Notes: generated from the sequence alone by a model not told the origin. A stretch of 64,000 nucleotides of DNA from an uncultured virus (IMG/VR IMGVR_UViG_3300010998_000812) (IMGVR_UViG_3300010998_000812); one strand, 5' to 3'; counted from the stretch's first letter, positions 31,911-34,885 are shown. A program made the numbers and translations.

Positions 31911-32039
31911 ATCATCAATCATACTATAGATATATGGACAAGAAAATGTTGTTTGTACACAAATTATTTAAAATTAGTTGACAAGCCTATGATTGTGTAG
32001 TATAATAGGCTTGTCCTTACTGAGAAAGCGAGGATAATT
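31911..32039 (+). repeat. Repeated dual-promoter unit 1 (CATACTA + TTGTACACA + sigmaA promoter with inverted repeat)
   Basis: TTGACA 31978, TATAAT 32001; GACAAGCCTAT/ATAGGCTTGTC; homologous to 32927-33081 and 33911-34030. Confidence 0.85.
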
Positions 32040-32891
32040 ATGGATAACGGTACATCGGATACTTTTTGGGATATGCGGCATGTGGAAATAAAAAGCCCTC
32101 CGATATCTTCGTCTACTTCACATATCTTTAATAGCCGTTTTCTTAATAATCACAATGCTAAGGAGAAGCCTAATATGTCCTTATGCGCGTTTGCGGCATA
32201 TAATGAATGTATATATTTGGTTGCAGATTCACAGATCTCTACTGAATTATATATAAAAACAACTATCAACAATAAGGATGAATATAATCCATCCGGTCTT
32301 TATGTAGCAACTTCGTATAGCTTTCGCAAAATATTCAAAGTAAACGATAAGGTGTTTGGTTATAGTACTGGTGATAATTTCCTGTTCGGAAAATGCGTAA
32401 CAGATTATGTGCATTCTATCGGTCACATAGATAATGCCGATGTTTTCGAAGCAAGTGAAAAAATATTAAATGATATGAACGAAAAATGCCGTGATGATTT
32501 ACCGCCGTATGCTCAGGATTCAGACCAAGCGAGACATCACTATAATACAACGTTTGTAATTTGCGGATATATCAATGAAAGACTTAAAGTGTATCGCATA
32601 GCCAAAAAGGAACATGAGCCGGGTTACTATACTATGGAAATCCTGATGAAAGATACGCCAACACCCGGAGATGCTACATGGCATAGTGATGGTGCGAATT
32701 GGGCTACTCCAATGTTTAAAGTTCTGAGGTTGCCGGATTATGAAAGTGCCCCTGACAGATTGGAAAGCTTTTTCAATAAAATATTTGAGCTCAGCCCTCA
32801 AATAGATAATACTGTAGGGGGAAAAGTCCACATACTTAAAATAACACCAGACAATAAAGCCTCATGGATAAAGAATGGATATATATTATAA
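32040..32891 (+). CDS. Proteasome-beta-like Ntn hydrolase, copy 1 (internal MSLC at 32175)
   Basis: S1-L-C..D17-S-Q, KIF, STG, DNTVGG..KITP. Confidence 0.75.
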   Translation: MDNGTSDTFWDMRHVEIKSPPISSSTSHIFNSRFLNNHNAKEKPNMSLCAFAAYNECIYLVADSQISTELYIKTTINNKDEYNPSGLYVATSYSFRKIFKVNDKVFGYSTGDNFLFGKCVTDYVHSIGHIDNADVFEASEKILNDMNEKCRDDLPPYAQDSDQARHHYNTTFVICGYINERLKVYRIAKKEHEPGYYTMEILMKDTPTPGDATWHSDGANWATPMFKVLRLPDYESAPDRLESFFNKIFELSPQIDNTVGGKVHILKITPDNKASWIKNGYIL

Positions 32892-32926
32892 TTGACAGCT
32901 CGCATTTCTGCGGGCTTTTTTGTTGT

Positions 32927-33081
32927 TTCATCATTCATACTATATATTATACGGACAGAGAATGGTTGTTCGTACACAAATAAATTAGTTCGGCTACGTT
33001 GCAAAGCAACGATGCCAGCTACGCGACAGGCTTAAGTATATATGATATAATAGGCTTGTCCTTGTAGAGAGCAGGGATAAT
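32927..33081 (+). repeat. Repeated dual-promoter unit 2 (contains 34-bp insertion)
   Basis: Aligns to units 1 and 3 except 32991-33024. Confidence 0.85.
32991..33024. mobile_element. 34-bp hairpin insertion (REP/MITE-like) in TT^GACA
   Basis: CGGCTACGTTGCAAAGCAACGATGCCAGCTACGC is absent from both paralogous promoters. Confidence 0.65.
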
Positions 33082-33861
33082 ATGAATATTGATAATGATA
33101 AGATAAGTTTTAAGGCTTTCCCGCCGCTGCCTTTCAACCCTTCAAACATTGGAATGTGTAGCATTCATGGGAATAGCCCGATTATCTCTAATTGTGGCTG
33201 TTTAAAGCCTTCAGAAAGCAAGGTAGAAAAAATGTCCCTCTGTTATGCATTGTTATATCAAAGAGAAGCTTATATCGCAGTCGATTCGAGGCTATCTGTA
33301 AATGTTATACGAGACGAATTCGGCAAAGTTGTTGATATGGATGTAGGAACTGATGATTTCCAGAAAATTTATATTATCAACGACAAAAATATAGCATTTA
33401 TTACCGGGCAAAGTATTTTTGGCTATGATGATAAGACTTTTACAGATGTGATGTCGGACATAGACTTCGCCGGGCTTACTTTAAAAGATATACTTAATCG
33501 ACTTAATGCGGTTTTTGCTAATTTAGTAAACGCAGATCAAAGAACCGAGATCTCCGTATTCAGTATGGATGGTGGAGAATTAAAACTTGGAGAATTGATA
33601 GTTGGTTATAGTGCTTTTATTTACGATTATGTTTTCTTCCCAAAAACAGCTTGTATGTATCATTTGAAGGGTGTAGAATGGGCAAGACCATTAATAATGA
33701 AGGTTGACGGGAGAAATAATACAGAATACATAATAAACTTTTATAAGGAAGCGTACGATCAGCGAAAATACAATGATAATTCAATCGGCGGACCTATTCG
33801 TATCATCCATCTTACCCCAAACGGATACGAGTGGATAGAAAAAGGACTGATAATCGAATAA
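33082..33861 (+). CDS. Proteasome-beta-like Ntn hydrolase, copy 2 (MSLC at 33232)
   Basis: S1-L-C..D17-S-R, KIY, ITG, DNSIGG..HLTPNG. Confidence 0.75.
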   Translation: MNIDNDKISFKAFPPLPFNPSNIGMCSIHGNSPIISNCGCLKPSESKVEKMSLCYALLYQREAYIAVDSRLSVNVIRDEFGKVVDMDVGTDDFQKIYIINDKNIAFITGQSIFGYDDKTFTDVMSDIDFAGLTLKDILNRLNAVFANLVNADQRTEISVFSMDGGELKLGELIVGYSAFIYDYVFFPKTACMYHLKGVEWARPLIMKVDGRNNTEYIINFYKEAYDQRKYNDNSIGGPIRIIHLTPNGYEWIEKGLIIE

Positions 33862-33910
33862 GCTCATACAAAGAAACAAGCTCCCTCATAGCAGGGAGTT
33901 TATCTTTTGC

Positions 33911-34030
33911 CTCAGCTATCATACTATATATGTACGGACAGAGAATGGTCGTTCGTACACAAACAAATTAGTTGACAGGCTTAAGTATATGTGTTATAAT
34001 AGGCTTGTCCTTACTGAAAGTGAGGATAAT
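33911..34030 (+). repeat. Repeated dual-promoter unit 3
   Basis: CTCAGCTATCATACTA, TCGTACACA, TTGACA(33972)-17-TATAAT(33995). Confidence 0.85.
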
Positions 34031-34849
34031 ATGTGTAATACAAGCTATACAGACTGTTCCAGAAACATCATTCGTGATTCGAGAACTTCTGTTGCAATGG
34101 CATCGTCAAAGTATGTCTCTTTGAACGCAGATGTTTCTGAAATTGGTGTGTATCTTACTGACTTCGGGGAAAATTGTATGTCTCTTTGTTTTGCTATAAT
34201 CTATCCGTTTGCTGCCTATATAGCAGCTGATTCAAGAAGCTCTATTGGTAAAGGTGAAATAAATATATTTTCCAAAAACCACATAAAGAGAGTCGTTGAC
34301 AGTGATAATTACAAAAAGATTTTTCGCTTGCCCTTTAACGACAAGAGGGTATATGGGTTTAGCACGGGTACTAATAAATTCATTGGAAATTCAATGACCG
34401 TTACTGATGTGGTTAAGAAGTATTCTTCAGAAGGCGCAGTACGTTTGCTTGAACAAGCCTCTCATTTATGCAATGTATTCTTCCAAAAGAAACCGGGAGT
34501 ATCGTTTACGCTGATTGAGTTTGACAATGAGCTTAATCATTTCAGGTATGTATGTGCCGATGCAACTAATAATGATATAAGCATCAAAGAACATCTCGTT
34601 GATCAATCCGGCGGGGTAGCTTGCGTCTACTCAGGCTCTGATTGGGCAAAGCTAATATTGAATTATGTTAATGTACCGTCGCTTGAAAATATTACAGACG
34701 AGAATATAAAAAGCACTATAACAGAAATATTTGAAAAAGCATATGCAGCATCTGACATTTATGACAATTCCGTTGGCGGCGAATACCACTTACTAAAAAT
34801 CACTCCCGGCGGAGGAGAAGAATGGTTACATGGTGGATACGATCTTTGA
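34031..34849 (+). CDS. Proteasome-beta-like Ntn hydrolase, copy 3 (MSLC at 34178)
   Basis: S1-L-C..D17-S-R, KIF, STG, DNSVGG..KITPGG. Confidence 0.75.
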   Translation: MCNTSYTDCSRNIIRDSRTSVAMASSKYVSLNADVSEIGVYLTDFGENCMSLCFAIIYPFAAYIAADSRSSIGKGEINIFSKNHIKRVVDSDNYKKIFRLPFNDKRVYGFSTGTNKFIGNSMTVTDVVKKYSSEGAVRLLEQASHLCNVFFQKKPGVSFTLIEFDNELNHFRYVCADATNNDISIKEHLVDQSGGVACVYSGSDWAKLILNYVNVPSLENITDENIKSTITEIFEKAYAASDIYDNSVGGEYHLLKITPGGGEEWLHGGYDL

Positions 34850-34859
34850 GTAATATTTT

Positions 34860-34885
34860 AGCTCCCTCATAGCAGGGAGTTTTTT
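34860..34885 (+). terminator. Terminator, identical core to 33879-33900
   Basis: AGCTCCCTCATAGCAGGGAGTT after both copy 2 and copy 3. Confidence 0.75.

Follow-up and report, generated by a model that had tools for sequence, protein, structure and literature searches.

Between two transglutaminase-like genes in the 64,000-nucleotide stretch of the uncultured virus IMGVR_UViG_3300010998_000812 (IMG/VR; the whole of this 64-kb stretch is called the window below), three open reading frames (ORFs) follow one another on the plus strand, each in a monocistronic cassette of its own, and together they form an array spanning 31904-34881 (Table 1). Judging from a structural model, the three products are proteasome-beta-like N-terminal nucleophile (Ntn) hydrolases of the MEROPS T1 type with Ser in the place of Thr; their catalytic function is a prediction from the sequence, and the family to which they belong is rare and unannotated. 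Each cassette has a leading unit of 130-165 nt and a trailing G+C-rich hairpin with a T-run, and neither a signal peptide nor a partner gene was found within any of them. A promoter-like site and a terminator-like hairpin were found for each gene, in agreement with a first-pass annotation made from the sequence alone, which had given every cassette its own promoter unit and terminator; terminator-like sites number 8 in a 4-kb scan, against 2.2 expected.

Measured against the cassette 1 protein, those of cassettes 2 and 3 show 26% and 31% identity. All three contain M-S-L-C, an Asp 16 residues past the Ser, K-I, (S/I)-T-G and DN(S/T)(V/I)GG...(K/H)(I/L)TP...W, just as the first-pass annotation had listed them. 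The self-contained cassettes likewise lie where it had placed them, while its use of M-S-L-C as the beginning of each frame has to be given up: the frames open 45, 50 and 49 codons earlier, with an ATG directly after GAGGATAAT or GGGATAAT.

Table 1. Features of the array and of the genes on either side of it, in window positions.
Feature	Position	Strand	Remarks
Terminator-like hairpin, left array border	31880..31903	+	10-bp stem, T-run; ends the upstream transglutaminase-like gene
Cassette 1 regulatory unit	31904..32039	+	
Cassette 1 gene	32040..32891	+	283 aa: 45-aa variable extension, Met-Ser at 32175 (AAGGAG before it), proteasome-beta-like domain
Cassette 1 terminator-like hairpin	32897..32916	+	
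Cassette 2 regulatory unit	32917..33081	+	
Cassette 2 gene	33082..33861	+	259 aa: 50-aa extension, then Met-Ser at 33232
Cassette 2 terminator-like hairpin	33878..33901	+	80% identical copy at 34860
Cassette 3 regulatory unit	33902..34030	+	
Cassette 3 gene	34031..34849	+	272 aa: 49-aa extension, Met-Ser at 34178; protein chosen for modelling
Cassette 3 terminator-like hairpin, right array border	34860..34881	+	
Flanking gene, outside the cassettes	30309..31865	+	exported Thr-rich protein (lipobox-like LSGC) with Transglut_core (PF01841, E 5.5e-10)
Flanking gene	35154..37112	+	exported protein with Big-like domains

Fold and active site

An AlphaFold2 model of the cassette 3 protein, built on an alignment of 37 family sequences, reached a predicted local distance difference test score (pLDDT) of 83.1 and a predicted template modelling score (pTM) of 0.81, with residues 1-31 disordered and residues 31-50 of low confidence; from the single sequence, AlphaFold gave an unusable model (pLDDT 35.3). 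Foldseek returned at least 500 matches to the model, and all 37 rows listed are 20S proteasome subunits (best E 1e-7). Aligned by VIA-align to active beta5 subunits and to Anbu, the model scores Z 16.8-17.9 with a root-mean-square deviation of 2.6-3.1 over 171-185 residues, its residues 51..269 falling onto chain positions 1..190 of mature catalytic beta5 subunits. Residue 51, a Ser, is paired with residue 1 of mature beta5 and Anbu in most rows, and residues 47-50 with positions -3 to -1 in the propeptide of uncleaved T1A beta5 mutants. A search of 48,161 chains that is independent of Foldseek gave Z 17.7-15.6 for 20S beta, 16.9 for Anbu, 13.7 for HslV, about 13 for alpha subunits, 12.0 for BPH and 11.9 for Connectase, with acid ceramidase, penicillin acylases and other Ntn hydrolases below Connectase (Z 10-7). 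The Ntn alpha-beta-beta-alpha sandwich that the first-pass annotation had expected is thus present in the model, with VIA-align Z values of 17-18 for its nearest counterparts (root-mean-square deviation 2.7-2.9 over about 176 residues).

Among 35 distinct family members, the nucleophile Ser1 is kept in all 35, Asp17 in 34 (Glu in the other), Ser18 in 35, Arg19 in 27, Lys33 in 35 and Gly47 in 34, and the two glycines of DN(S/T)(V/I)GG in 33 and 32. The spacing from Lys to Gly is 14 in cassette 1, equal to that of Lys33-Gly47. In the family alignment, whose mean column identity is 25%, Met-Ser, D-S and K appear as invariant and G, GG and W as near-invariant, and variability peaks in the hairpin between Asp17 and Lys33. 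In proteasomes this region lines the substrate channel.

Relatives and distribution

The family is small. A phmmer search of 1.84 billion representative proteins yielded 34 family proteins, and a word-indexed collection of 5.8 billion yielded 6 family clusters; all ten members that were looked up are known solely from metagenome assemblies of ENA or Logan, with no entry in NCBI or UniRef. Searches of NCBIfam, PHROGs and PADLOC assigned no family, the phrog_1040 "peptidase HslV family" matching cassette 1 only at E 0.08, and a profile search of PDB sequences found nothing significant (E 0.15 and 0.97). The ESM Atlas returned unnamed clusters only, of which the one at rank 17 has PF00227 on 20% of its members.

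For loci, a 12-sequence sub-alignment was used, the full alignment being too variable. No relatives with DNA context were found in JGI metagenome contigs, IMG/VR viral contigs, PLSDB plasmids or phage records, and GTDB genome contigs gave one family locus (L001), in a metagenome-assembled genome (MAG) of Oscillospiraceae. Within the order of this carrier 4 of 401 genomes match, two of them convincingly (G001 and G052), and in a sample of the phylum 5 of 401 match at E <= 0.01, again two convincingly (G001 and G582). The copy in G052 (L006; contig C2, 517-1379) follows a CATACTAA motif and has an 87-residue extension, M-S-F-V and D-K-R for D-S-R; its match is split over two frames (745-1143 and 1179-1379), so the copy is probably decaying. 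Contigs from sheep-gut, bovine-gut and bioreactor metagenomes hold near-identical pieces of the cassettes. In one run (X2), a 949-nt contig carries cassette 3 with two differences and has a loose end at 33914, its sequence upstream being unlike that of the window; cassette 2 and parts of cassette 1 lack cover in runs X2-X5, which is not evidence of their absence. Three further ENA members (P0004, P0040 and P0017), for each of which the longest contig is 48,692 nt, hint at a second three-gene array.

The phylum search also led to a protein of 252 amino acids from Anoxybacter fermentans (BBF96_09535), a member of a large family with at least 1553 clusters at E <= 0.001, a few of them named "20S proteasome alpha/beta subunit" by JGI. 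In 18 aligned members of this Anoxybacter-type family, Ser2 is invariant and Met-Ser is the protein start in 17. By hhalign the two families match with a probability of 98.2% (E 3.9e-14), the alignment pairing Met-Ser of one with Met-Ser of the other and keeping the motifs D-S-R, K, G and TVGG in register; because of this match to a family starting with Met-Ser, the window family is best placed as a divergent offshoot of a Ser1 clade in the proteasome-like superfamily. The Ser at position 1, which the first-pass annotation had called unusual, is therefore not so within its clade. Anoxybacter-type proteins match PF00227 weakly in 10 of 18 cases (best E 4e-4), and four match the Connectase N-domain.

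In the survey by Fuchs, Alva and Lupas (2021; PMC8665760), the Ser1 clade probably belongs to the "group II" subfamilies. Fuchs et al. described 22 new subfamilies and saw no genomic context that would indicate a function; the Firmicute clusters FC1-FC5 are uncharacterised there, without known function or context. By description only, these clusters resemble the window family in being Firmicute proteasome-like proteins with a Thr1/Ser1, Asp17, Lys33 and Gly47 core. Since none of the ten members looked up is in NCBI or UniRef, the family was probably absent from the nr database that was searched in that paper.

N-terminal extension and start sites

Ahead of Met-Ser, the three leaders contain no stop in 144 in-frame codons, against 6/141 and 19/141 in the other two frames; the chance that three leaders stay open at the off-frame rate is, by our own estimate, of the order of 1e-6. 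An extension of 18-80 residues is present in 31 of the 35 distinct members (the median over all 35 is 35), and one of the four without it, P0037, has a cluster mate with 48 more residues. P0040, an 86% identical orthologue of cassette 2, passes through the extension without gap or stop, differing from cassette 2 at 11 of 50 positions there and at 25 of 209 in the domain. The open leaders, the prevalence of the extension among family members and the intact reading frame of P0040 show that the extension is translated, and its evolution is fast.

Ser, Thr, Asn and Cys make up 36% of the extension and 23% of the body. This composition, the high variability in sequence and length, and a weak shared [ST]-[SG]-hydrophobic-[ST] motif seen by eye would suit a model in which the peptide itself is the product, the Ntn domain acting as a single-turnover self-cleaving module that releases a variable N-terminal signal or precursor peptide whose diversification makes specificity groups. 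Of all the explanations weighed here this is the most improbable, as the cassettes hold no exporter, modification enzyme or receptor gene, some members and the large-family relatives do without an extension, and the full catalytic apparatus and the oligomer interface are conserved although single-turnover cleavage would need neither.

Met directly precedes Ser1 (position -1) in 35 of 35 aligned distinct members. Further upstream, K, E, R or G stands at -4 in 81% (25/31), at -5 in 58% and at -3 in 52%, against a background of 22%; the codons at -3 to -5 are purine-rich and lie where a Shine-Dalgarno (SD) sequence would be placed. In all five loci for which DNA is available, SD-like DNA is found 7-9 nt before the internal ATG (AAGGAG, AAGGT, GGGGA, AGAGGA and AAGGAG). 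At the Oscillospiraceae locus L001, a TTGACA-18-TATAAT promoter has its -10 box overlapping the first in-frame ATG, which would therefore be absent from that transcript. Taken with the Met-Ser start of the relatives, these features suggest a second, internal start at the near-invariant Met before Ser1, an ancestral start that would have been kept when the frame was extended. Each gene would then yield two products: a long form from the first ATG, with its ribosome-binding site in a conserved hairpin of the 5' untranslated region (5'UTR), its N-terminus blocked and its activity dependent on autoprocessing, and a short form from the internal, ancestral Met, on which methionine aminopeptidase would expose Ser1. 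Removal of Met before Ser is well established.

Alternatively, only the long form might be made, as a zymogen whose variable propeptide of 18-80 residues is cut autocatalytically between Met(-1) and Ser1, with processing, not translation, as the reason why Met(-1) is kept along with charged residues at positions -3 to -5. We regard this as unlikely but to be taken seriously. The extension is clearly coding, the closest consensus match among the ribosome-binding sites of the three cassettes belongs to the first ATG (GAGGA or GGGA, spacing 4-5 nt), model residues 47-50 superpose on the uncleaved beta5 propeptide, and the Leu at -1 of P0040 implies that a Met residue is not strictly needed. Proteasome-type autolysis, however, normally has Gly at -1, and a start codon is the best explanation for a Met shared by 35 very divergent sequences; Met-Ser is also the protein start in 17 of 18 members of the large related family, three to four members of the window family are called from Met-Ser without any extension, and the first ATG of L001 lies inside a -10 box. 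Propeptides, moreover, are known only for proteasome beta and HslV according to Fuchs et al. (2021; PMC8665760), whereas the window family has a translated extension.

If the long form were never processed, Ser would not be N-terminal, and the proteins could serve as scaffold or binding proteins in the manner of proteasome alpha. A hydrophobic Ser169-like and a variable Asp166-like position speak for such a role, but invariant Ser1 and Lys33 and near-invariant Asp17 and Gly47 are hard to understand without catalysis in an alignment this diverged, and the structural match to beta (Z 17.7) exceeds that to alpha (Z about 13). A non-catalytic use is accordingly regarded as very improbable, and the two-product reading is the one carried forward.

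Promoters, palindromes and leader hairpins

Cassettes 1 and 3 carry TTGACA-17-TATAAT at 31978 and 33972 (12/12 matches), and cassette 2 GCGACA-17-TATAAT at 33023-33051 (10/12 matches). The -35 box TTGACA of cassette 1 stands at 31978 and its -10 box TATAAT at 32001-32006, and the cassette 3 promoter (33972-34000) carries TG. By sequence, all three are predicted promoters of the consensus sigma-70 type; the 4-kb scan gave 21 promoter-like sites where 16.3 are expected, a count close enough to expectation that only the quality of the three cassette sites stands out. A palindrome extends across both promoter boxes in each cassette; that of cassette 1 is perfect (11-bp arms at 31980-31990 and 32005-32015), that of cassette 2 is imperfect, and cassette 3 also has one. 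The 18-mer TATAATAGGCTTGTCCTT occurs on the plus strand of the window exactly three times, once per cassette, where 0.12 copies would be expected by chance, and no further plus-strand copy free of mismatches was found there. The unit of cassette 2 has about 35 nt inserted (33000-33020 region) that units 1 and 3 lack.

A search for an operator copy close to a regulator gene found one further exact ATAGGCTTGTC at 57885, within a different short palindrome, and a regulator could not be assigned. A function of the cassette palindrome as a single-strand (Frpo-type) promoter, serving early expression off transferred single-stranded DNA, was dropped on inspection, because its arms are only 11 nt long, the -10 box lies mostly in the loop and folding rebuilds no duplex promoter.

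From the predicted transcript start, a 5'UTR hairpin of 10-11 bp hides the ribosome-binding site (GAGGA or GGGA) that serves the first ATG, at 32011-32037 in cassette 1 (over GAGGA), 33056-33080 in cassette 2 and 34005-34029 in cassette 3. Folding energies are -9.5, -11.4 and -14.9 kcal/mol in this order, with z-scores of -0.6, -2.2 and -2.8, and the stem shows compensating differences among the cassette copies. An Rfam scan gave only rli45, at E 0.39 and far under the gathering score, which was taken as chance.

Identity between cassettes is 64.6-76.1% over the upstream units and 71-83% over the promoter cores, against 54.2-55.9% over the DNA coding for the Ntn domain and 51.6-53.4% over that coding for the extension, shuffled controls lying at 49-53%. 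The coding DNA has thus diverged to saturation, at the level of shuffled sequence, and the earlier claim that regulatory DNA is better conserved than coding DNA is confirmed.

The cassette units also contain TCATACTAT (31919-31927, 32935-32943 and 33919-33927), which recurs throughout the window: 12 copies against 1.05 expected, 11 of them on the plus strand (7299, 18172, 21773, 21853, 28140, 29593, 31919, 32935, 33919, 48345 and 61743) and one on the minus strand (57795). Most copies stand in front of genes, 40-120 nt upstream and behind a T-rich stretch (TTTTTGTTTTT..TC.GC.ATCATACTATA). The element has the look of a promoter used throughout the region by a dedicated sigma factor, and we take its -10-like CATAnnnTA to resemble the mother-cell sporulation sigma consensus. 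Two sigma factors of the extracytoplasmic function (ECF) type are encoded in the window, at 1602-2204 and 13349-13885.

Predicted self-association

Four copies of residues 51-272 of the cassette 3 protein were folded with the family alignment, alongside three controls. The interface score ipSAE was 0.82, 0.82 and 0.83, against 0.00 for the best control, with a partner pLDDT of 89 and agreement between runs on at least 90% of contacts; in calibration, the ipSAE mark was reached by 20 of 30 one-chain-pair proteins and by 1 of 23 single-chain proteins. Two same-on-same interfaces are predicted, the first formed by helices H3/H4 (204-217 and 236-245) with a family-specific hairpin (76-86), the second by helix H2 (137-152) with strand 181-187. 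It is through the H3/H4 face that the beta rings of a proteasome are held together (Fuchs et al. 2021; PMC8665760). The model supports self-association of the mature domain; lateral ring contacts are not seen in it. In the two-product reading, the mature domain would associate through the H3/H4 face and the second two-fold interface, and the assembly would act as a cytoplasmic peptidase or transpeptidase.

Comparison with known proteasome-like systems

The best structural match, 20S beta (beta5; MEROPS T1, PF00227), shares with the cassette proteins the strand and helix order S1-S10 and H1-H4, the nucleophile/Asp17/Lys33/Gly47 set, the segment before the nucleophile and the predicted H3/H4 contact. 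The cassette family differs from it in having Ser for Thr, Met in place of the usual Gly at -1 and 13-18 residues inserted between Asp17 and Lys33; sequence identity is 13-18%, and no alpha subunit or ATPase gene lies near the cassettes. Closest by sequence is the Anoxybacter-type family, which has a Ser nucleophile, a similar size and aligned M-S, D-S-R, K, (S/T)xG and TVGG...KP...W motifs. That family, in contrast, is large and taxonomically broad, lacks an extension in 17 of 18 members and has a longer H3/H4 insertion; single-sequence phmmer does not retrieve the two together, and at the one Anoxybacter-type locus inspected (L007) the flanking ORFs, named by eye only, are not of the mobile-element kind.

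The Anbu operon comprises genes for an ATP-grasp protein, an alpha-E protein and a cytoplasmic transglutaminase, and the first-pass annotation had heard a loose echo of it in the transglutaminase-like neighbours of the array. This echo fades on inspection: no ATP-grasp or alpha-E genes were seen near the cassettes, and the neighbours are separate units encoding exported proteins with promoters and terminators of their own, for which reason an Anbu-type operon was rejected. Residues 100-150 of the second neighbour's product align weakly to the Cys/His/Asp core of the first (E 0.009). The neighbours share a 105-nt upstream block that is 74% identical (D11; 30184-30288 and 35025-35129), and a 38-nt element of theirs, AAAATAATCTGTGTACGA.. 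(D13), recurs before an adhesin gene at 21722-21759. In structure, Anbu is close to the model (5nyw, Z 17.4 over 184 aligned residues; 5loy, Z 16.9), but it has a long C-terminal helix H5 (PMC8665760), whereas the model ends in strand 263-267 and has no helix after 241.

HslV matches with a Z of only 13.7 and works with an HslU-type ATPase; the cassettes have no PF00227 match above the cut-off, and no HslU-type AAA+ gene adjoins them, the nearest AAA domain (AAA_5, at 48422) being 13 kb away. HslV and CodW, as bacterial cytoplasmic homo-oligomers whose N-terminus may arise by Met removal, are nevertheless instructive: exposure of Ser1 by methionine aminopeptidase, as proposed here, would mirror that of Thr1 in HslV, and Bacillus CodW has been reported with an N-terminal Ser. 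Connectase (the MJ0548 family) has a proteasome-like fold and offers a precedent for specific transpeptidase, non-degradative chemistry; it scores Z 11.8-11.9 and is monomeric, whereas the cassette protein is predicted to self-associate. Connectase also lacks H1/H2 and carries two inserted helices between S3 and S4 (PMC8665760), while the model has H1/H2 (124-131 and 139-153) and no helical insertion after strand 97-99.

Genomic setting

The window encodes a PcfJ-like protein, a 1993-residue adhesin (thioester, SpaA and Cna_B domains), a sortase, a serpin, C39-like peptidases, two ECF-type sigma/anti-sigma pairs, a SocA/Panacea-domain protein, a type II-like DNA methylase, an AAA_5/VWA pair and a PP2C phosphatase. 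Relatives of the PcfJ-like protein are found on 19 Firmicute plasmids, the best being a 361-kb plasmid of Butyrivibrio proteoclasticus, and the single family gene of L001 adjoins a PDDEXK_2 transposase, DUF6017 and a topoisomerase remnant. The array lies in an accessory, probably mobile region of ruminant-gut Clostridia. A full-text literature search, judged by titles and abstracts, showed no link between proteasome homologues and conjugative, anti-defence or mobile elements among the matches listed.

The genes might instead be housekeeping substitutes, that is, ordinary paralogues encoding general cytoplasmic quality-control proteases for hosts without HslV or proteasome, with no part in any conflict. 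Indeed, PF00227-type genes are present in 0 of 31 relatives of the L001 carrier MAG, the searches gave no match to a defence or anti-defence family, and tandem paralogues are common across the region. A housekeeping gene would hardly be expected, however, to be so patchy (two convincing cases in 401 genomes of the order, and ten of ten looked-up members known from metagenomes only), to have no unfoldase gene adjoining or to combine saturated coding divergence with kept promoters, which is unlike the conserved housekeeping pattern; the cassettes also occur separately elsewhere, as in the 949-nt X2 contig, where cassette 3 follows dissimilar DNA. We consider this explanation improbable.

Directly downstream of the array, at 38809-47655, lies a further diversified family in tandem: three paralogous genes (for proteins of 1147, 878 and 906 amino acids) that have no Pfam match and share DNA blocks of 64-78% identity (families D1-D5, D8 and D14). 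The region seems to be an assembly of single-gene units that have regulatory modules in common. At 28105-29010 a SocA/Panacea antitoxin-like gene (PF13274, E 4e-16) is directly followed by an ORF of 129 amino acids without a family, and the two could be a toxin-antitoxin pair. A fusion of deoxy-5'-nucleotidase (NT5C) and guanylate-kinase domains (57979-59082) is found near an orphan-like type II DNA methylase (55672-56340) and the PP2C phosphatase, which matches the PADLOC candidate PDC-M21C. Upstream of the adhesin (22000-27981), a serpin (PF00079, E 3e-35) lies beside a sortase-domain protein at 10397-13219.

Interpretation

We favour, with a probability of roughly 0.6, the reading in which the array is made up of three paralogues from a rare Ser1 proteasome-beta-like subfamily, each transcribed independently and each giving two products whose mature domain self-associates and serves in conflict. 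They would be genes of a mobile element that fire strongly when a repressor is absent, and the paralogues would have diverged in target specificity. A conflict of this kind fits the palindrome-overlapped consensus promoters, the one-gene units, the saturated coding divergence, the patchy distribution and the mobile-element-type neighbours. The role in conflict, whether it be anti-defence upon arrival in a new host, or else defence or competition, is favoured as an interpretation and is the weakest step of the argument. It is tempting to go further and picture a two-isoform switch, with a blocked pro-form and an immediately active Ser1 protease from each gene, in which a mobile element of rumen and gut Clostridia, on reaching a new cell, fires three specificity variants from repressor-controlled consensus promoters and so destroys proteins of host defence or of competitors, as an anti-defence arsenal of proteases made from the proteasome fold; but so specific a scenario seems doubtful.

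A number of observations weigh against this reading. As for the fold and active site, the PF00227 gathering cut-off of 22.4 bits is reached by none of the 37 members, and only cassette 1 scores at all (12.8 bits, E 0.09). The equivalence of Asp17 and Lys33 rests on spacing, conservation and profile alignment, the structural alignment being known as ranges; of the T1/D17/K33/G47/D166 pattern read in the first-pass annotation, the first four positions hold, with Ser for Thr, while Asp stands at the Asp166-like position in only 23 of 35 members and the Ser169-like position is Val or Ile, both being mapped by motif only. As for the two products, P0040 has Leu and not Met at -1, where the codon may be a TTG/CTG start or the sequence a real exception; cassettes 2 and 3 have weak internal SD-like signals (AAGGT and GGGGA), the enrichment of K/E/R/G at -3 to -5 might instead serve processing at the protein level, and the 5'UTR hairpin of cassette 1 folds no better than shuffles. 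As for self-association, the use of four copies and of the family alignment differs from the calibration, the score may reflect memory of proteasome structures, and the four-copy model shows two-fold interfaces and no lateral ring contacts. As for conflict and mobility, neither a relaxase nor a coupling protein nor VirB4 could be recognised in the window, and PADLOC shows no defence family in the cassettes or most of their neighbours. Tandem paralogy is, moreover, frequent in the region (three giant paralogues, two C39-like genes, two sigma/anti-sigma pairs), and triplication alone is therefore no sign of an arms race.

The family is set apart by the translated, variable extension before a retained Met-Ser start, the self-contained cassettes and the tandem diversification in an accessory, probably mobile region. 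Proteasome-like proteins beyond the proteasome, HslV, Anbu, BPH and Connectase are almost wholly unstudied. Should the cassette proteins turn out to be ordinary general peptidases, the finding would amount to a new, rare subfamily and nothing more; should they be sequence-specific like Connectase, the enzymes could become tools. In either case the family offers several handles: a compact one-gene unit with a strong, apparently repressible promoter, three diverged copies for the comparison of specificities, and a placement among genes of the mobile-element type. The extension combined with a retained internal start, finally, makes the control of N-terminal nucleophile exposure directly testable in this branch of the proteasome-like superfamily.

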